From an uncultured Eubacteriales bacterium (lineage in GTDB: Bacteria > Bacillota > Sulfobacillia > Fermentithermobacillales > Fermentithermobacillaceae), in NCBI GenBank assembly GCA_964641455.1, contig CAZXLH010000002.1, forward strand, positions 50,774 to 114,773: 64,000 nt of DNA, read 5' to 3'. Positions 3,826 through 47,990 of the stretch are shown here, in pieces; positions within the stretch are counted from its first letter, which is position 1; each line of letters opens with the position of its first letter. The position numbers were made by a program, and so were the translations under genes. The notes beneath the pieces were generated by a model. The model did not search any database, had not been told where the DNA came from, and was given only the letters and a program-made list of their open reading frames with translations.

Positions 3826-4362
3826 ATGGGACAGGAAGAGACCAATCTAACTCCGTTGAGGGTTCCCAGGTTGACGCCTCTGGATATCCATAACAAAGAG
3901 TTTACAAAGTCTTTTCGTGGTTATAATGAAGATGAAGTAGATGAGTTCTTAGATCTCATAGTTGCTGAGTTTGAGGCATTCATACGGGAAAATGAAGAAC
4001 TTCATGCAAGCATGTCAGGCCTTGAAGCCAGGATTGGGCATTACAAAGGGCTTGAAGAGACTTTGAAAAATGCTATTGTGCTTGCTCAGAAAGCAGCGGA
4101 TCAAATCAAAGAGTCTGCTGCAAGAGAGGCAAAGGCCATAATAGAGGATGCTCATCGCCAGGCAGACAGAACAAGAAGTGAAGCAGAAGAGCTTCGCAGA
4201 AAAACCTATGAGGATCTTGAGACAGAGCGTCAAAAAGCAGTCAGGTTTAAAACAGAATTTCGTACATTGCTTCAATCCACATTGGAGATGCTTGACGACA
4301 ATGTGGATAAAGTAACACGAATCTTAGGTGAAGAAAAAGAAACCGAACACAGCATTGATTAG
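3826..4362 (+). CDS. divIVA: DivIVA cell-division protein.
   Basis: The N-terminal domain (LTPLDIHNKEFTKSFRGYNEDEVDEFLD) is the DivIVA domain, followed by coiled coil. The internal ATG at 3826 has a GGAGGGG RBS, whereas the ORF-track start at 3739 has none. Confidence 0.75.
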   Translation: MGQEETNLTPLRVPRLTPLDIHNKEFTKSFRGYNEDEVDEFLDLIVAEFEAFIRENEELHASMSGLEARIGHYKGLEETLKNAIVLAQKAADQIKESAAREAKAIIEDAHRQADRTRSEAEELRRKTYEDLETERQKAVRFKTEFRTLLQSTLEMLDDNVDKVTRILGEEKETEHSID

Positions 4363-4379
4363 CGATTGGAGATTGACAC

Positions 4380-5060
4380 ATGAAAGTGATAGGGATTGCC
4401 GGAGGGATGGGTCCTCAAGCAACATGTGATTTGTACATGAAAATAATTCAACATACCCCGGCGGAAAAGGATCAGGACCACTTGCGGGTAATAATTGATT
4501 CTAATCCAAAAATACCTGATAGAACGGCTTATATCCTCGGCAAAGGTGAAGACCCCAGGCCGTATCTTATTGAAACCGCCTGTAATGTCGAAAAGGCCGG
4601 GGCATCATTTATAGTTATTCCTTGTAATACAGCGCATTACTTTCACAAAGATGTTCAAGCTAAGGTTGGTATTCCTGTACTTCATATGATGAATGAAGTG
4701 GCCTTGCACCTAAAGGGAAAAATAAAAAAGGCAGGGATTTTGGCTACAAGCGGTACTTTGAAAATCGGGCTTTATTCAGAAGCGCTTTCGGCTGAAGGTA
4801 TAGATACGATTGTACCCGGCGAAAAAAGCCAAGGCCAAGTGATGGAGTCTATATACTTGGTTAAATCCGGCAAGGTTGAACGTGCAAGAGAACTTATAAT
4901 TGAGCAAGGCAAAGCGCTTTCAGCTCGTGGCGCTGACGTAGTTATCGCAGGGTGCACTGAGATACCGCTCATATTGAAACAAGGCGACTTGGACATTGAC
5001 GTAATAGATGCAACTGATGTGTTGGCCAGAGCATGTGTGAAATTTGCCCTTGAGAAGTAA
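4380..5060 (+). CDS. Aspartate/glutamate-family amino-acid racemase, aspartate-racemase-like.
   Basis: The N-terminus (MKVIGIAGGMGPQAT) and the motifs PCNTAH and GCTE are characteristic of the Asp/Glu racemase family. Confidence 0.7.
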   Translation: MKVIGIAGGMGPQATCDLYMKIIQHTPAEKDQDHLRVIIDSNPKIPDRTAYILGKGEDPRPYLIETACNVEKAGASFIVIPCNTAHYFHKDVQAKVGIPVLHMMNEVALHLKGKIKKAGILATSGTLKIGLYSEALSAEGIDTIVPGEKSQGQVMESIYLVKSGKVERARELIIEQGKALSARGADVVIAGCTEIPLILKQGDLDIDVIDATDVLARACVKFALEK

Positions 5061-5080
5061 TAAACGTGGAGGTGTGGTAG

Positions 5081-6685
5081 TTGAAAGCCAGAGTATTTAC
5101 CAACGGCAACTTCTGGGTTTCAGGCAGAGATTTAAGGCGAAGAGACAGTTTGGCTGCCCTAAACGGTAGAATTGTTTGTGTAGGAGATTACAATCAATGT
5201 CTTGATGCTCTTCCTATTGGTATCAAGCCTGAAGTAACAGATCTTAACGGAAAGACAGTTTTGCCTGGGTTTATCGACAGCCACCTCCACCTTTTGAGTT
5301 TTGGCCTAACATTGCGCGATGTATCTTTAGTTGATATTGGCTCTATTACTGAACTGAAATCAAAGGTTAAGGCAAGGGCAGATCAAGTTTCTGAAAATAG
5401 CTGGGTCATCGGCCGGGGCTGGGATCAGGATTTATTTTTCGAAAAACGATATCCTACACGAAAAGATCTTGATGAGGCTTCAGGTGGCAGGCCTGTGTAT
5501 TTGACAAGAGTGTGTGGACATATCGCAGTTGTTTCATCAAAAGCTCTTGAGATTGCAGGTGTTAACCGGGATACTCCGGACCCGCCGGGGGGCAAAATTG
5601 ATCGGGATTCCTATGGAGATCCCACCGGTATTCTTCGTGAAACTGCTCAGGGTTTAGTACGGCCTTACATTCCCGAAACAGATTATGAAACTATGGAAGA
5701 CGCCCTCAAAAATGCCATGGAATATGTGCTTTCCAGAGGTATTACTTCGGTTCATATAAATGACGGGCAGTTAGGATTTCCGGGAACCATGGAACTTTAT
5801 AAGAAGGTTCAGCAGCAAGGTTATTCCTTAAGGGTTTATTGGGACATTCCGGGTGATCTAATGACAGACCTGTTTGAGACCCCTCTGCGATCAGGAGACG
5901 GCGATGATTACTTCAGGATTGGAGCCGTGAAACTTTTTGCCGATGGCTCTCTTGGCGGAAGAACAGCTGCCTTGGAAGCACCATACTCAGACGATCCTAA
6001 CAATCGCGGTATGTTAGTTTTGTCTCAAGATGATCTCAAACAACAGGTTTATCTGGCCCACGCCAATGGTATGCAGGTAGCCATACACGCAATAGGCGAC
6101 AGAGCTGCCAAAGTAAGCCTCGAAGCAATAAACTCGGCTCAATCCAGGCTTCCCATTAGTGGGATAAGGCACAGGTTGGTTCATGTTCAAATATTGTCGC
6201 CCCTGCTTATCACTGAAATGAGACGGGTAAGAGTGGTTGCAGATGTTCAACCCAAGTTCATATCCAGTGACATGAGATGGGCGTTAGATAGAGTAGGAAC
6301 GGCCAGAATGCGATCTTCGTATTCCTGGCGTACAATGCTAAGGGCAGGCGTACCCCTTGCCGGAGGGTCTGATTGCCCGGTTGAACCCCCGGATCCATTG
6401 TATGGCATCTACTGTGCCGTAACACGCAAAGATATGGAAGGGAATCCACCTATGGGATTTTTCCCAAATGAGAAACTTACACTTGATGAAGCTGTGAATC
6501 TGTTTACAGCCGGCGGTGCTTATGGATCATACGAGGAGAATAAGAAAGGAAGCCTTACTCCTGGGAAACTGTGTGATTTGGTAGTTTTGTCAGAAGACAT
6601 TGCTTTCGTGAGCCCTGAAGACATTAAGGATTTAGAAGTGGTCCTTACCGTGGTCGGCGGAGAAATCGCTTACAGAAAGCCCTAA
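5081..6685 (+). CDS. Amidohydrolase-3 family metal-dependent hydrolase, YtcJ-like.
   Basis: The translation contains the motif VLPGFIDSHLHLLSFG, is 534 aa long, and ends GGEIAYRKP. The TTG start has a GGAGGTG RBS. Confidence 0.7.
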   Translation: MKARVFTNGNFWVSGRDLRRRDSLAALNGRIVCVGDYNQCLDALPIGIKPEVTDLNGKTVLPGFIDSHLHLLSFGLTLRDVSLVDIGSITELKSKVKARADQVSENSWVIGRGWDQDLFFEKRYPTRKDLDEASGGRPVYLTRVCGHIAVVSSKALEIAGVNRDTPDPPGGKIDRDSYGDPTGILRETAQGLVRPYIPETDYETMEDALKNAMEYVLSRGITSVHINDGQLGFPGTMELYKKVQQQGYSLRVYWDIPGDLMTDLFETPLRSGDGDDYFRIGAVKLFADGSLGGRTAALEAPYSDDPNNRGMLVLSQDDLKQQVYLAHANGMQVAIHAIGDRAAKVSLEAINSAQSRLPISGIRHRLVHVQILSPLLITEMRRVRVVADVQPKFISSDMRWALDRVGTARMRSSYSWRTMLRAGVPLAGGSDCPVEPPDPLYGIYCAVTRKDMEGNPPMGFFPNEKLTLDEAVNLFTAGGAYGSYEENKKGSLTPGKLCDLVVLSEDIAFVSPEDIKDLEVVLTVVGGEIAYRKP

Positions 6686-40816: not shown

Positions 40817-41053
40817 GTGCGCACACAAACTACCGGTTCAAAATATATGTCTGAGTTTCATAAACACTTAAGATCCACGTATGAGGAAAAAGAAGACCAA
40901 ATCAAATTGTCTCAGAACCCTCCAATCGAACCCTATGATAGTTACAAGCGATCTAAGGCAAAACTGCGGAAACGCCGCCCGGAACTTGTCTTGGAGCCAA
41001 AGCCCTACAATGACGAAATCTGGGATCCTGATTTAACCTATATTCCTGAGTAA
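40817..41053 (+). CDS. Small charged hypothetical protein of about 78 aa.
   Basis: An AAGGGAGG RBS lies 7 nt before a GTG. The 3-prime end overlaps the convergent PHP gene by 16 bp. Confidence 0.35.
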   Translation: MRTQTTGSKYMSEFHKHLRSTYEEKEDQIKLSQNPPIEPYDSYKRSKAKLRKRRPELVLEPKPYNDEIWDPDLTYIPE

Positions 41054-41991
41054 ACAATTAAACTTGTTGTTCCTACAAGTTGTTTCATTATCTCAACAGA
41101 TTCGTAGCTAACACCATGACTGCCTATCATCGCACCTTCTGTCGATGAGGTACTGTGAAAATCCGAGCCTCCGGTAATCAGTAGTTTGTTTTCCCGCGCC
41201 ATATACCAATATCTTTGCTGAAGGCTATGATCGTGCTCAGGATGGCACACCTCTATTCCTTGAAGCCCGTTTTCTACAAGTTCGTGGAGCAGGTAATCTG
41301 CATTGGCAGTTCCGGGATGAGCCCATACAGCAATACCCTTTGCTTGCCGTATAACTTTTATTGATTCGACAGGATTGAGGTGAAACCTCTCTACATATGC
41401 AGGCCTCCCTATCCCAAGATAGAGATCGAACCCCTCTTCAATACTGCTAATGTATCCTTTTTCAATCATTGCTTCAGCAACATGGGGCCTCCCAACTGAT
41501 TCTCCCTTCGATAGTTCAAGTACTCTGCATAACTCAATCTGTATACCAAGATGATTAAGTTTTTCAACCATGGCTTTGATTCTAAGATGACGTGACTCTC
41601 TGAGCTGTGACAATACCTTTGATAACTGATGGTTGTCAGGATCAATAAAATAACCTAAAATGTGTATTTCCCTTCCACCCCACTGGCTATTTATCTCTAT
41701 ACCTGGAATTACTTCGATACTTCCATGCTTGATATCATCACTTTGATTAGTAGGGTATACTCTAGCCAGTTGTTCATATCCGGAAACCGTATCATGATCA
41801 CATATTGAAACCGTCCTCAAACCCAATTTATGTGAATAACTAACTACCTGCTGTGGTGTATATTGACCATCAGAGGCAGTAGTATGAATATGAAGATCAC
41901 ATAAATTAGAAATTGGATCTTCTCGGCCAGTGACATCACTACCCGAGAGATCTTTGCGAAGTATCCGGCCGTCACTGACACATGGGTGCAT
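41038..41991 (-). CDS. PHP-domain metal-dependent phosphoesterase (TrpH/YciV-like).
   Basis: The translation contains LCDLHIHTTASDG...ICDHD. Confidence 0.7.
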   Translation of the reverse strand: MHPCVSDGRILRKDLSGSDVTGREDPISNLCDLHIHTTASDGQYTPQQVVSYSHKLGLRTVSICDHDTVSGYEQLARVYPTNQSDDIKHGSIEVIPGIEINSQWGGREIHILGYFIDPDNHQLSKVLSQLRESRHLRIKAMVEKLNHLGIQIELCRVLELSKGESVGRPHVAEAMIEKGYISSIEEGFDLYLGIGRPAYVERFHLNPVESIKVIRQAKGIAVWAHPGTANADYLLHELVENGLQGIEVCHPEHDHSLQQRYWYMARENKLLITGGSDFHSTSSTEGAMIGSHGVSYESVEIMKQLVGTTSLIVYSGI

Positions 41992-41999
41992 CCTGATAA

Positions 42000-42302
42000 C
42001 TAATTTCTGGGACTAACAATGAGTTTGATAGCTGTCCGTTCCTGACCATCTATAGTGATGTCAGTAAATGCGGGAACACATACAAGGTCAACTCCGCTTG
42101 GCGCCACAAACCCACGTGCAATAGCAACTGCCTTAATGGCTTGGTTGATAGCCCCTGCGCCTATGCCTTGAATTTCGGCGTACCCGCGCTCTCTAATAAC
42201 TCCGGCTAGCGCCCCTGCAACAGCATTAGGGCTTGACTTTGAGGAAACTTTGAGAACTTCAACGGACGTGGTATCTCGGCGATCTACGTTGGCTACTCCC
42301 AA
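42000..42302 (-). CDS. spoVS: Stage V sporulation protein S.
   Basis: The translation VEVLKVSSKSSPNAVAGALAGVIRERG...GAGAINQAIKAVAIARGFVAPSG is nearly identical to B. subtilis SpoVS. The start is a TTG preceded by a GGAGGG RBS, which gives a 13-aa N-terminal extension. Confidence 0.85.
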   Translation of the reverse strand: MGVANVDRRDTTSVEVLKVSSKSSPNAVAGALAGVIRERGYAEIQGIGAGAINQAIKAVAIARGFVAPSGVDLVCVPAFTDITIDGQERTAIKLIVSPRN

Positions 42303-42481
42303 TCTTATCCCTCCAAAGTAAATTAATTAACTGCGGCAATTGTAAATAACCTATAACTTGAACTACCGAATCTTGGTGTATTTCCATTCTACTGGTAATC
42401 CATGTATTTGACAAGGAGAATTTACCCTTAGAAAGCAAATATTGACTTCTTTGGGTAAGATTCAATCATATTGGGACTGTG

Positions 42482-43261
42482 TCATTCTCTTATTAGTATA
42501 CGCTCAATTTTTTCAGCTCTGCCGGAAGGGTTAATAGCACATAAAACTGCACATAACTGTCGCTTCCCTTTGGCTGGCTCATGACGAACGGGTAATTGCG
42601 TTAGGAACTTCTTAATGATAGTTTTGCGCTTGACCCCGATGACTCCTTCATAACTGCCCGTCATGCCAACATCGGTTATATACGCAGTGCCATCAGGCAA
42701 TATAGTTTCATCAGCAGTTTGTACATGAGTATGGGTTCCAAAGAATGCACTCACTCTTCCGTCAACATACCAACCTGCAGCTATCTTTTCCGACGACGCT
42801 TCGCCATGGAAATCTACAATAATCACCGGAGTGATAGTTTGCATCTGAGCGAGTTCAGCATCCAGGACCCTAAAGGGGCAATCAAAATTCTGCGGAGAAA
42901 ACACTCTCCCGCAAACATTTATTACTCCCACAGTTGTGCTATTGCGAGCTGTGAACACACCTGAACCTTTGCCTGGAATGCCTGGGGGATAATTTGCAGG
43001 CCTTAGAATTCTGTTTTGTGATTCTATTACCGGATAGATCTCTTTCTTATCCCATATGTGATTTCCTGAAGTTATCACGTCTACCCCCATGGAAAACAGT
43101 TCTTCAGCCACTTTCTTGGTAAGGCCTGCGCCGCCTGCGGCATTTTCTCCGTTGACAATAGTAAAGTCTACTTCGTAGTCATCAATTAATTGGGGTAGCC
43201 TGGATTTCAGAAATGACCGGCCCGGGGAGCCAAATATATCTCCGATAAATAGTAAATTCAT
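42482..43261 (-). CDS. ymdB: YmdB-family (TIGR00282) metallophosphoesterase, a 2',3'-cyclic-nucleotide phosphodiesterase.
   Basis: The N-terminus reads MNLLFIGDIFGSPGR...NGENAAGG. The gene lies between rny and spoVS, as ymdB does in B. subtilis. Confidence 0.8.
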   Translation of the reverse strand: MNLLFIGDIFGSPGRSFLKSRLPQLIDDYEVDFTIVNGENAAGGAGLTKKVAEELFSMGVDVITSGNHIWDKKEIYPVIESQNRILRPANYPPGIPGKGSGVFTARNSTTVGVINVCGRVFSPQNFDCPFRVLDAELAQMQTITPVIIVDFHGEASSEKIAAGWYVDGRVSAFFGTHTHVQTADETILPDGTAYITDVGMTGSYEGVIGVKRKTIIKKFLTQLPVRHEPAKGKRQLCAVLCAINPSGRAEKIERILIRE

Positions 43262-43270
43262 GAATATACC

Positions 43271-43825
43271 TCACTTATGAAACACTAGCACCTTTTCACC
43301 TTCGCGTAATGCAACCAGTCTTTTGGGGCACTCAAGTTCCTTAATTTTGTCAAGCATTTCCTGTAAGAAGAATCTGGCCGACCAAGAAAAATCAGTGTCT
43401 GTAATGAGTGAATCATCTAAATCCAACAGTATGGGGACTTGGTCTGTAACCAGTGAAACAGTGAGGCTAAGCTCACCTGTAGATAACGAAGCAACGTCTC
43501 TTTCTACATGAAAAGAGTGGAAATCGTCTATGGTTTCCCAATTGCATTCAATAATGCTGCCGGTTTGCTTGGCCAACGAGAGGTATGCATCTATTGACTG
43601 TAGATACAGCGACTGCAATTTCTCACGTTTTGACTTGCTGACAGGGCCTTGGCACAAAAACACCAACTTTAGCCCTCGCCTTTCCGGGTCAAAGGTGATT
43701 TTTGATACCTGGGGGAAAGCTATGAGTAGCGCAGCCAAAACTTCAACATCTTTTTGAGATACTTGTTTGCCCCTCTGTTCGTGCTTATCTATATTTGTTT
43801 TTCTTTGAGTTGTATTATCAGACAT
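43271..43825 (-). CDS. Hypothetical protein with no recognisable domain.
   Basis: The start was taken at an ATG (MSDNTTQRK) with a GGAG RBS; the ORF track extends to a TTG at 43900. The gene sits tightly between rny and ymdB, 9 bp from ymdB. Confidence 0.5.
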   Translation of the reverse strand: MSDNTTQRKTNIDKHEQRGKQVSQKDVEVLAALLIAFPQVSKITFDPERRGLKLVFLCQGPVSKSKREKLQSLYLQSIDAYLSLAKQTGSIIECNWETIDDFHSFHVERDVASLSTGELSLTVSLVTDQVPILLDLDDSLITDTDFSWSARFFLQEMLDKIKELECPKRLVALREGEKVLVFHK

Positions 43826-43935
43826 TGTTTTGCTCCGTTTCAGCCTCTGGGCCTCTGATTGGCAAACTTGTTTGAATAGAGGCGCCGGCCCGCCTGGCAA
43901 AACCGGTTCCGACGCCTCAGTTTTTGCGTTAAATA

Positions 43936-45465
43936 CTACTTTGCGTAACCTATAGCCCTTGTCTCCCTAATCACGGTAACCTTAATTTGACCAGGGTATT
44001 CAAGTTCTTTTTCAATCTTGTTGACAATATCCCGTGCCAAAGTCACTGACCCGAGATCGTCAATTCTTTCAGGTTTGACCATGATCCTTATTTCACGGCC
44101 GGCTTGTATGGCATATGACTTTTCAACGCCCTCAAAGGAGTTGGCGATGTCTTCAAGCTTTTCAAGCCGCTTGAGATACATCTCCAAAGTTTCGCGTCTT
44201 GCTCCGGGACGCGCAGCAGAAATGGCATCAGCCGCCGCTACCAAGAACGCTTCGACAGACTGTGGCTCTACATCGCCATGATGTGCCTCAATGGCACGAA
44301 TGACGGCTTTTGATTCCCTGTATCTCTTAAGCAAATTAACTCCAATGGCTACGTGAGAGCCTTCAACCTCGTGATCTACAGACTTTCCAATATCGTGAAG
44401 AAGCCCTGCCCGTTTAGCAACAGTTACGTCAGCACCTATTTCAGCGGCCATATTTGCCGCCAATTGTGCAACCTCAATGGAATGCTTGAGTACATTCTGG
44501 CCATAACTGGTTCTGAACTTAAGCCTGCCTAAAAGCCTAATAAGTTCCGGGTGGAGCCCGTGAACACTAAGATTGAGCGCTGCTTGCTCGCCTTCTTGTT
44601 TGATAACTGAATCTACATCCTTTTGAGCTTTTTCAACCATCTCTTCTATGCGAGCAGGATGGATACGGCCGTCAGCTACAAGCCTTTCCAGTGCAATACG
44701 GGCAACTTCCCTTCTTATTGGGTCGAAACCTGACAAAATGACAGCTTCGGGAGTATCATCGATTATGAGTTCAATCCCTGTAAGAGTTTCGAGGGTTCTG
44801 ATATTCCTGCCTTCTCTCCCGATTATCCTGCCTTTCATCTCGTCATTTGGCAGTTCAACTACAGATACGGTATTCTCTGCTACGTGATCGGCTGCACATC
44901 GTTGAATCGCCAGGGCAACTATGCTTCGTGACTTCTGCTCTGCTTCGGCCCTTGCCTGTTCTTCAGCGTCTCTGATTAGCCTTGCAGTTTCGCCCTTAAG
45001 GGTCTCTCTGACCTCCTGAAGGATTTTTTCCCGGGCACTTTCTCTTGACAGCCCTGAAATACGCTCCAATTCTTTCATGGAAGATTCGTATAGCGTTTCA
45101 AGTTCCCGTTCTTTTTGAGCAAACGCCTTTTCTTGTTTTGACATGGCTTCTTCTCGCTGAGTTAAAAATTCCTGCCTTCTGTCAAGCGATTCCTCTTTCT
45201 TGATCAACCTACGTTCAAAGCGTTTTACTTCCTGACGCCTTTCACGTATTTCTTTATCGATTTCAGCCCTGATTTTTTGGGCACTGTCTCTGGCTTCAAG
45301 AAGGATTTCCCGGTGTTTGTTCTCAGCGCTTTTGGTGGACTGTTCCAATATTCTCTTAGCTTCAGTTTCTGCTGACGTTATCTTTGCTTCACCGATTATT
45401 CGCCGTAGCAAGTATCCTATTGAAGCCCCTACAACAAAGAGTACAACATACAAGATATACTGCAA
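43936..45465 (-). CDS. rny: Ribonuclease Y.
   Basis: An N-terminal TM segment and coiled coil are followed by a KH domain ([12 protein letters not shown]) and an HD domain (LLHDIGK). The start is a TTG after AGGAGGTG. Confidence 0.9.
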
Positions 45466-45490
45466 ATGCTGTCACCTCCTCCATAAACGG

Positions 45491-45512
45491 AAAAAGCCGA
45501 GCAGCGCTCGGC
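45491..45512 (-). terminator. Intrinsic terminator after recX. The stem is GCCGAGC-gct-GCTCGGC followed by TTTTT, and it sits about 11 nt upstream of the rny RBS.
   Basis: The hairpin and U-tract were read from the reverse-complemented sequence. Confidence 0.5.
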
Positions 45513-45720
45513 ATACTGGCTCAATTATGTTAATACCTGGTTTTAGGACCATCTATATAAACAAACAACAATTTGTGAAATTGACTATGACTTATATATT
45601 CACAAGATCAAAAACACCTAGAATCTTTGAACAGTCAAAACAATGTTATCACCGTCAGTTGTTCACGTTAAACAGTAAATTATCCAGGCATCAATTCGCA
45701 TCAAAGCCAGCATCACACGG

Positions 45721-46191
45721 CTACTCTACGTCACTTACCCGACCGAATGTCCTCACTACCGATAATATGGTTGCTTCGGTAAATCCTCTTCGAAATAACC
45801 ATCTGGCCAGGCGTTGCGTGTCTTTCAATGTCCATTGGGTTTTGCCTTTTGCATACTGTCTTGCCGCAGTACGCGCCAGGCTTCGCTCATCTAACTCTGC
45901 GTAAACTTCGTCAATCAAAGTTTCCGCAAGTTGCTTATCGAAACGACGTTTCCTGAGTTCGTAAAAGCAACGTTTCTTGCCACAAGGTTTATTTCGTATA
46001 ATTGCATCCAAAATATTTTTGGCAAGCACTGTATCGTTAAGATAACCCCATTCCTTAAGTTTCTCAATACATGTGTCTATTTCACCCGACGTAAATTCTT
46101 TTCGCGAGAGCATAAATTTCATCTGGCCTGAACTAACTTGCCGCCTTGCCAAGATTCTCAGGGCAGCATTCATGACACTCTTATTTCCCAT
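45721..46191 (-). CDS. recX: RecX regulatory protein.
   Basis: The translation is 156 aa with RecX helical repeats and overlaps the end of recA. Confidence 0.75.
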
Positions 46192-47248
46192 GGCGTTTAC
46201 CGGACTTTGACTTTGAATCCTTAACTTCTTTAGTTTTAGCCTTATCCTCTTCTTCTTGCGCTTCAGGCCTTAATAGGTCCTTGATTTTGGATTCTACCTC
46301 TTTGCTGATTTCAGGATGGCTCTTAAAGAATTCCCTGGCGTTTTCTTTACCCTGTCCAAGTTGTGTTTTCCCGTAATAATACCAGGTTCCCGTTCTGGTG
46401 ATAATGCCCTTTTCTACACCTACGTCCAAGAGTGAACCTTCACGGGAAATGCCTTCTCCAAAGATTATGTCGACCTCTGCATCCTTAAAAGGCGGAGACA
46501 ACTTATTCTTTACAACTCTTATCCTGGTTCTTGCACCTATGGTTTCCTGCCCTTTTTTCAGATTTTCAATTCTTCTTACATCGAGCCTCACTGAAGAATA
46601 AAATTTAAGGGCTCTCCCACCAGGAGTAACTTCAGGATTTCCGAACATTACGCCAATCTTCTCACGCACTTGATTTATGAAAATGGCAGTTGACTTTGAC
46701 TTAGCCACCACAGCAGTAAGTTTCCTTAGTGCTTGGGACATCAAACGCGCCTGAAGGCCTACGTGGGCATCACCCATTTCGCCTTCGATTTCAGCGCGTG
46801 GAGCCAAAGCTGCCACAGAATCTACTACGATGCAATCCACAGCACCGCTTCTAACCAAAGCTTCGACTATTTCCAATGCTTGTTCTCCGGTATCAGGTTG
46901 GGAAATAAGAAGGTTTTCTATGTCCAACCCTAGATTCTTTGCATACATAGGGTCCAAGGCATGTTCAGCATCGATAAATGCAGCAATTCCTCCCGCTTTC
47001 TGTGCTTCTGCAACGATGTGCAGAGCCACGGTTGTCTTACCTGAACCTTCTGGGCCATAGATCTCCACAATTCGCCCTCGAGGTATACCTCCGATTCCAA
47101 GAGCAATGTCCAATGCCAGGGCACCGGTTGGAATAACATCTACTTGCAATTTCTGAGAAGATTCTCCATACCTCATTATGGAACCTTTGCCGAACTGCTT
47201 CTCTATTTGCGCAACCGCCAACTCCAGAGCCTTTTCTTTTTCTAACAT
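46181..47248 (-). CDS. recA: Recombinase RecA.
   Basis: The translation contains GPEGSGKTT, the L1/L2 loops, and [14 protein letters not shown]. Confidence 0.95.
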
Positions 47249-47276
47249 CTAAATTGATTCACTCCTTAGAGTCGCC

Positions 47277-47306
47277 ATATAACCCTGACAGTCCATTCCC
47301 AGTCAA
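47277..47306 (-). promoter_or_regulatory. Putative sigma-A promoter for recA, reading TTGACT-N18-TTATAT on the minus strand.
   Basis: The hexamers were read from the reverse complement. A half Cheo-like box, CGAACATTTGTGT, lies at 47345-47357. Confidence 0.4.
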
Positions 47307-47360
47307 GTATAACATCAGCAAGAACAAGGAGCAATCACATATTACACAAATGTTCGCCTA

Positions 47361-47990
47361 TCACCCAGGCGGTAGTTGTACGCTGCCAAGAACCGAGTAT
47401 AAGGGGCCTTGAGGGTATAATTGACTTTCCATTAGGAGTACATCTGAAACATCCCAGTGTAAATTGACTGACGCGGTACTTTCCGACTCTAAATACTTGT
47501 TTCTGAAGGCCCGGAAACTTTGTTCCCAGAGCATGCGTTGGCCGGAATTGCCCTTCTGCCTGTTCCCACGCCTTTTGTTTCTTGCCAGAGTTATGTGAGG
47601 CTGAAAAGGCCTGTTTTCCTCAAACCCAAGGCTACTTAACCCTGTACGCAAATTGCCGGCAAGGTTTATGAGTTCATGTTTCCCCTTATCGATTCCGATG
47701 TGAAAGACCCGTGGGCAGCCCTTATATGGAAAGGTTGAGGGCTTTCCCAGTGAAAGCGTAAATGGTGCAGTATTTGTAGCCGACGCTTGAATCACGTCCA
47801 ATATGCAAGGTATTGACGTTCTTTGTACATTATTGCCGAGGAATTGAAGTGTAATGTGCAAATTCTTAACAGACACAAATCGGCAATCCGGGAAAACCGG
47901 TTTTGCTTGCGTAGTGAAACGTTCCAAAAACACTTTTATTTCTGAAGGCAAAGACAAAGCCACAAACCCTCTAAAAACATCAGTTTTCAT
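47361..47990 (-). CDS. RNA 2',3'-cyclic phosphodiesterase (2H family, ThpR/LigT-like).
   Basis: The translation has two H-x-T-x motifs, HITLQF and HITLAR. Confidence 0.65.
   Translation of the reverse strand: MKTDVFRGFVALSLPSEIKVFLERFTTQAKPVFPDCRFVSVKNLHITLQFLGNNVQRTSIPCILDVIQASATNTAPFTLSLGKPSTFPYKGCPRVFHIGIDKGKHELINLAGNLRTGLSSLGFEENRPFQPHITLARNKRRGNRQKGNSGQRMLWEQSFRAFRNKYLESESTASVNLHWDVSDVLLMESQLYPQGPLYSVLGSVQLPPG

Follow-up and report, generated by a model that had tools for sequence, protein, structure and literature searches.

The open reading frame (ORF) located between rny and ymdB in the window analyzed here (a stretch of 64 kb, 64,000 nucleotides (nt), from an uncultured Eubacteriales bacterium, contig CAZXLH010000002.1), for which the working name gene X is used, is a genuine protein-coding gene and a fixed, integral and ancient part of an rny-X-ymdB-spoVS-PHP cluster. 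As judged from database searches, its product belongs to no described family and appears to found an unnamed one that is restricted to Firmicutes lineages other than Bacillus. The most economical reading is that X has an accessory role in the RNase Y/YmdB module, perhaps as an accessory or regulatory subunit that acts via protein-protein contact. The interaction, the partner and the effect on the partner are what we infer from the genomic and structural signals described below, with a probability of roughly 0.4.

The first-pass annotation of this DNA placed an ORF of 184-209 amino acids (aa) at positions 43271..43900, between rny and ymdB and on the same strand. This placement holds, with both neighbors scoring above the cutoffs of the respective models (TIGR03319 and TIGR00282). 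The gene and its immediate surroundings consist of the following features.

43936..45465, minus strand: rny (RNase Y), the upstream neighbor of X (TIGR03319, 765.7 bits vs cutoff 454)
43879..43918, minus strand: GC-rich hairpin, GAGGCGUCGG...CCGGCGCCUC, at 17 nt downstream of the rny stop codon and with only a weak U-tract behind it (from RNA folding)
43826..43900, minus strand: in-frame upstream extension of X to a TTG codon, non-coding and part of the rny-X intergenic region, uncovered by homologs
43833..43836, minus strand: Shine-Dalgarno sequence GGAG of X, 7 nt before the ATG (read from the sequence)
43271..43825, minus strand: gene X, 184 aa, undescribed family, with the ATG start at 43825 fixed by homologs and the TGA stop at 43271-43273
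43269-43272, minus strand: Shine-Dalgarno sequence GAGG of ymdB, overlapping the TGA stop of X
42482..43261, minus strand: gene for a ymdB-family metallophosphoesterase, the downstream neighbor of X (TIGR00282, 285.4 bits vs cutoff 254)

The longest ORF at this position (43271..43900, minus strand) encodes 209 aa from a TTG, and the protein translated from the internal ATG at 43825, which begins with MSDNTTQRK, has 184 aa. The close homologs of X are 170-198 aa long and, in 24 of 24 cases, their alignment starts at the ATG; thus, the 184-aa form is gene X, and of the size range originally given for the ORF only the lower end corresponds to the real protein. The TTG start was also rejected because the TTG at 43900 falls within the hairpin at 43879-43918 and because the extension contains indels compared with the ortholog from the closest relative (locus L040), whose X protein is 97% identical. 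With the start at 43825, the gap between rny and X is 110 nt, not 35 nt as initially proposed, whereas the 9-nt gap to ymdB and the GGAG ribosome-binding site (RBS) ahead of the MSDNTTQRK start were identified correctly.

Co-conservation of X with rny and ymdB in other genomes, which the first-pass annotation proposed as a check, is extensive. None of the 39 genome-derived loci departs from the order rny-X-ymdB, to which spoVS and the PHP-domain gene are usually appended; these loci were collected from genomes and protein look-ups and comprise 29 GTDB species representatives, mostly of Ca. Fermentithermobacillaceae, the family in which this places the organism of the window. Relatives were found by an alignment-based scan of genome contigs; a scan with a single sequence confirmed no relatives, and the broad family alignment (A2) was too divergent to serve as a seed. 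The 39 loci include Desulfotomaculum varum, a 3.75-Mb genome, and Mitsuokella (a Negativicute), in which a GGDEF protein replaces recA/recX upstream and the rny-X-ymdB-spoVS-PHP core is intact. A scan seeded from the Desulfotomaculum-like clade yielded 80 further metagenome loci, 59 of which have rny and ymdB flanking X as expected, whereas in another 12 a contig end truncates one of the two sides. The rny gene lies within 1.3 kb upstream of X in 69 of the 70 metagenome loci with enough upstream sequence.

Several loci depart from the standard arrangement. The distance from rny to X grows to 436 nt in L052 and that from X to ymdB to 495 nt in L101, an opposite-strand TerC gene is found between rny and X in L120, and L118 has no rny within the 775 nt of available upstream sequence. 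In several loci (L070, L077, L084/L085 and L093), rny-X is retained with no adjacent ymdB: the L070 cluster (3995-5340) has no ymdB or spoVS, and X and the PHP gene share 4 nt there, and in L093 (3959-7391), X is followed by spoVS, an M17 aminopeptidase gene and the PHP gene. Among the 119 loci (39 genome-derived and 80 metagenome), no X was seen away from both rny and ymdB. In three metagenome-assembled genomes, the X match is partial or weak (L034, 4258-4557; L035, 4001-4456; L036, 4001-4345), and in L035 rny and ymdB, too, give only fragmentary matches; these partial copies could be pseudogenes, masked stretches or assembly errors.

The identity of X proteins between lineages as distant as Ca. 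Fermentithermobacillaceae, Desulfotomaculum and Selenomonadaceae is only 26-32%. Given the same arrangement in lineages this far apart, X looks like an old component of the cluster that is missing in Bacillus, and the original description of the gene as inserted into a conserved operon is doubtful. A mobile or foreign origin was also considered and rejected because the GC content of X (0.423) is in line with that of the neighbors (0.42-0.46) and the synteny is stable across classes.

The X gene is under purifying selection. In ortholog pairs with dS (synonymous divergence) of 0.65-1.1, the ratio of nonsynonymous to synonymous divergence (dN/dS) for X is 0.03-0.17. Over 14 pairs, X has a median of 0.15, compared with 0.04 for rny and 0.07 for ymdB. 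These more distant pairs were used for the estimate, the comparison with the closest ortholog (L040) comprising only 7 substitutions.

The layout of the operon links X most closely to ymdB. The overlap of the ymdB Shine-Dalgarno sequence with the X stop codon is consistent with translational coupling of the two genes. In 27 of 29 loci, the spacing of X and ymdB lies between -4 and +35 nt; 9-16 nt is typical, the genes overlap by 4 nt in some lineages, and no terminator-like site was found between them. The spacer between rny and X ranges from -14 to more than 400 nt, and a strong hairpin is located at most 90 nt from the rny stop in 70 of the 88 distinct loci in which this spacer measures 50 nt or more, compared with 26% of shuffles (median z -3.8). 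Hairpins occupy the equivalent position in L001, L006, L008-L011, L015, L023, L033, L037-L041 and other loci, with stem sequences that differ between lineages; in the Desulfotomaculum-like clade, many of them resemble canonical intrinsic terminators (A-tract, GC stem and U-tract). The hairpin after rny in the window could be a leaky terminator, a stabilizer of the 3'-end of the rny mRNA or a processing site. The tight spacing of X and ymdB, together with the hairpin after rny, indicates that X is paired with ymdB and that the level of rny can be set independently.

An accessory role in the RNase Y/YmdB module has to be weighed first against the possibility that the function of X has nothing to do with either protein and that X is a passenger of an inherited gene order, like recA-recX upstream. 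Such a gene would fit the mixed functions encoded in the wider cluster (cinA, thpR, recA, recX and spoVS), the much faster evolution of X compared to its neighbors, and the fact that Bacillus does without X (PMC3542257); it would be harder to reconcile with the persistence of rny-X-ymdB-spoVS-PHP in Mitsuokella after replacement of the upstream context, with the overlap of the X stop and the ymdB Shine-Dalgarno sequence (and the 4-nt gene overlap in some lineages), and with the constant proximity of X to rny and/or ymdB in the 119 loci. We consider the passenger scenario a genuine but minor contender.

No described family accommodates X. The lack of any recognizable motif reported at first pass is upheld by sequence searches against Pfam, NCBIfam and the PDB. 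There are no matches to Pfam-A 2025 at E<=10, the best NCBIfam 20.0 match is AAC(6')-Ib with E=0.15 (11.7 bits vs the cutoff of 400), and phmmer detects no PDB sequences; a profile of the X family likewise gives nothing significant against the PDB, the best match being urate oxidase with E=0.069. Significant matches to Pfam, NCBIfam or PDB sequences are missing also among 10 distant X members and the 115 members of the family alignment. The only Pfam model that matches more than two members is PF14480 (PolC N-terminal domain I), with 6 of 115 members and the best E-value of 0.001, below the gathering score. These matches cover the α1-β1-β2-α2 region (residues about 31-71 of P0034 in alignment A2), and the X protein of the window itself shows none; this similarity may reflect a remote relationship or chance. 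Models for RraA and RraB (PF03737 and PF06877, respectively), YlbF/YmcA and PSP1/YaaT are absent from the Pfam scans of X, the 10 distant members and all 115 members.

The family is nevertheless sizable. A word-indexed search identified 25 homologs of X at 44-97% identity, and a profile search of 1.84 billion cluster representatives gave 308 matches at E<=1e-3, including 176 at E<=1e-10. Nearly all of the latter search's matches are 165-190 aa long and align end to end, and no fusion of X to another domain was detected among the best 150. All homologs are named "hypothetical" or "uncharacterized" in the databases, including those from the cultured Centipeda periodontii, Mitsuokella, Selenomonas, Desulfotomaculum varum, D. 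defluvii, Desulfosporosinus burensis and Desulfocucumis palustris. A search of the literature on the rny/ymdB/spoVS neighbors and on YmdB partners returned nothing on this family.

The structure prediction and fold comparison suggested in the first-pass annotation produced confident models and only generic matches. The AlphaFold models for members of two independent clades, that of the window (pLDDT, the per-residue model confidence, 82.5; pTM, the global one, 0.77) and the Desulfotomaculum-like one (pLDDT 87.7, pTM 0.84), share a single topology, α1-β1β2-α2-β3β4-α3-(flexible acidic loop)-α4-β5β6, and in both the N-terminus is disordered. Thus modeled, X is predicted to be a soluble, cytoplasmic α/β protein of about 175-185 residues. 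An internal triplication of three α-ββ units was considered and rejected at the sequence level, hhalign comparisons between the units giving probabilities of 1% or less. Among the structural neighbors are ACT-like and PCD/DCoH-like domains and the cap domains that bind the substrate in VAO-type flavoenzymes, and the fold, like these matches, appears to be generic. The claim that X lacks transmembrane segments agrees with the hydropathy profile and the models, in which no convincing transmembrane helix or signal peptide is apparent: the Kyte-Doolittle maximum over 19 residues is 1.58, at residues 27-45, a segment that contains a conserved proline and is modeled as a helix and strand of the globular core with pLDDT >90.

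The charge distribution differs from that initially described, namely a basic N-terminus and an acidic C-terminus that would suit an RNA- or protein-binding factor. The N-terminus is indeed mildly basic (+3 over 25 residues), although in the clade of the window only, whereas the last 34 residues of the window protein have a net charge of +2; the acidic stretch lies inside the protein, in a loop modeled with low confidence (residues 126-150, net -6) that is acidic in every member of the family. The polar positions conserved across the family are R109, D110, E118, R174 and E175, together with a [YF]-P-E motif after α1; there are no conserved cysteines or histidines, and no nucleotide- or metal-binding motif is present.

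With the family as a whole taken into account, the charge argument for RNA binding fails, the median isoelectric point (pI) being 4.86 and the median net charge -10. One alternative is that X is an RNA-binding protein or an RNA chaperone presenting substrates to RNase Y; however, the basic N-terminal tail is missing from the Desulfotomaculum-like and Selenomonadaceae members, the two conserved arginines are offset by three acidic residues, and the Pfam scans of the family revealed no match to KH, S1, dsRBD, Alba or other RNA-binding models, all of which makes such a function improbable. A role as a sensor of a small molecule, such as a nucleotide, or as a small enzyme, with the ligand state feeding into RNase Y/YmdB or X acting alone, also seems unlikely. 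The few invariant polar residues (R109, D110, E118, R174, E175 and the Y/F-P-E motif) do resemble a site and not a broad interface, and the fold neighbors include the ACT-like, PCD/DCoH-like and flavoenzyme cap domains; but such structural similarities are generic, buried salt bridges would account for the invariant charges just as well, and X has neither a nucleotide- or metal-binding motif nor conserved cysteines or histidines. Finally, the notion of a spurious ORF, a non-coding spacer that stays open by chance, has the lack of a family match as its sole point and can be discarded in view of the hundreds of full-length homologs, the purifying selection (dN/dS of about 0.15), the two confident, concordant models and the RBS that X carries; the absence of orthologs and the poor coding potential that had been named as grounds for dismissing the gene are not observed.

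We therefore return to X as a subunit of the RNase Y/YmdB module. The protein-binding character suggested for X stems from the low median pI, the loop that is acidic in every member and the common topology of the two AlphaFold models. Under the proposed mechanism, the expression of X would be tied to that of ymdB through the overlap of the ymdB RBS with the X stop and the lack of a hairpin between the two genes, and the conserved stem-loop or terminator after rny would allow X and ymdB to be dosed independently of rny. X would then work through protein-protein contacts on the RNase Y/YmdB RNA-processing module and might modulate or target the YmdB phosphoesterase, tether YmdB to the membrane-bound RNase Y, or both, with the conserved acidic flexible loop and the invariant R109, D110, E118, R174 and E175 as the candidate contact surface.

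As regards the partner, the operon layout and the apparent translational coupling point to YmdB, and the 4-5 loci in which X stays beside rny with no adjacent ymdB point to RNase Y. In a crude mirror-tree comparison on 54 loci, the distances of X correlate with those of Rny at r = 0.88 (partial r of 0.67 given recA and 0.59 given recA and the other neighbor) and with those of YmdB at r = 0.80 (partial r of 0.41 and 0.11, respectively), figures to be read as weak in view of the relatedness of the loci, X distances near saturation (mean 1.4) and the lack of a significance figure. Along with the weakness of this comparison, several observations weigh against a subunit role. The indirect signals disagree, with the layout favoring YmdB and the persistence of gene order and the distance correlation favoring RNase Y; X evolves 2-4 times faster than its neighbors; and conserved synteny can persist with no shared function. 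Moreover, B. subtilis does without X, with rny and ymdB side by side in a single operon (PMC3542257, PMC8266666).

If X is such a subunit, the implications extend beyond the lineages that encode it. RNase Y is the principal endonuclease of mRNA decay in Firmicutes, and YmdB, which is co-transcribed with rny in B. subtilis, has a strong effect on cell-fate decisions. The molecular target of YmdB is still unknown; it has been proposed to be a nucleic acid, with a link to RNase Y (PMC6123443). X matters because this target is a standing open question, on which X offers a direct experimental handle: its gene lies between the two others, it is found in lineages from Selenomonadaceae to Desulfotomaculum, and it is a concrete candidate partner of both YmdB and RNase Y. 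Binding of X to YmdB or RNase Y would define how the two connect in a large part of the phylum and may point to an equivalent contact in Bacillus; should X couple YmdB to RNase Y, its study would reveal the long-sought target of YmdB. What is new is a strongly conserved protein family that has not been modeled (308 cluster representatives with no Pfam or NCBIfam entry) within the already known rny-ymdB operon.

The gene order on the minus strand of the window is recA, recX, rny, X, ymdB, spoVS and the PHP-domain gene, with thpR further upstream. The additional features of this region are listed below.

47361-47990, minus strand: thpR (ThpR, RNA 2',3'-cyclic phosphodiesterase), further upstream (TIGR02258, above cutoff)
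46181-47248, minus strand: recA
45721-46191, minus strand: recX
45496-45512, minus strand: terminator-like hairpin in the recX-rny spacer, GCCGAGCGCTGCTCGGC followed by TTTTTCCGTT, 31 nt ahead of the rny start that the ORF finder assigned
42000..42302, minus strand: spoVS (PF04232 in the orthologous loci), with a promoter-like site upstream at 42414-42386 (promoter scan)
41038..41991, minus strand: PHP-domain gene, the last conserved member of the cluster (NF041577, 171 bits, and NF047791, 166 bits, both below cutoff; assigned by synteny)

The PHP protein is related to RNase RNM/3',5'-nucleoside bisphosphate phosphatase, so that four enzymes acting on RNA ends, namely ThpR, RNase Y, YmdB and the RNase RNM-like PHP protein, are encoded within 7 kb. 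The hairpin at 45496-45512 either ends the recA-recX unit just before rny or is part of the rny leader. An Rfam scan of 41000-47500 yielded nothing relevant, with a chance mir-84 match at E=0.21. Comparison of 41038-47248 in the window with 6576-12785 of L040 reveals a mosaic of divergence: ymdB and spoVS are 100% identical in nucleotides and X has a dS of 0.025, whereas dS is 0.11-0.16 for recA, recX, rny and the PHP gene. This pattern suggests recent recombination across the X-ymdB-spoVS segment.

Among the known systems, the closest in gene content is the rny-ymdB operon of B. subtilis with spoVS, which has the same flanking genes, with order and strand conserved; in the window, spoVS has its own promoter-like site. 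The difference is that in B. subtilis ymdB directly adjoins rny and is co-transcribed with it (PMC3542257, PMC8266666), whereas the window has a 184-aa gene between them and a hairpin after rny. The N-terminal domain I of PolC (PF14480) is Firmicutes-specific like X and weakly matches 6 of 115 members, but its own function is unclear, so that this hint carries no mechanism for X. Structurally, McrD, YbjN/AmyR and type III secretion chaperone-like α/β proteins (ExsC) align over 80-106 of the about 165 ordered residues of X, with a root mean square deviation of 3.6-6.7 Å and 8-13% identity; they show no sequence-profile match, and the α-ββ-α-ββ-α-α-ββ topology of X contains an extra C-terminal α-ββ unit.

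With respect to the proposed role, and in that respect only, X can be likened to RraA and RraB, which act on RNase E, and to RicA, RicF and RicT, the Y-complex proteins that act on RNase Y, all small cytoplasmic modulators that bind the main mRNA-decay endonuclease and change how active or how specific it is. RraB, like X, is acidic. These proteins show no sequence similarity to X, the Ric proteins adopt a different fold (helical or PSP1-type), and their genes do not lie between rny and ymdB; the likeness concerns a role that is only proposed for X. RicT and RNase Y associate in a stable complex (PMC10470536). Rather doubtfully, X might be a dedicated, hitherto unrecognized subunit by which YmdB, and perhaps the RNase RNM-like PHP enzyme as well, is physically coupled to the membrane-bound RNase Y in Desulfotomaculia, Negativicutes and related lineages. 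In that case, X would be to these lineages what the RNase E modulators, or the Y-complex of Bacillus, are to theirs.
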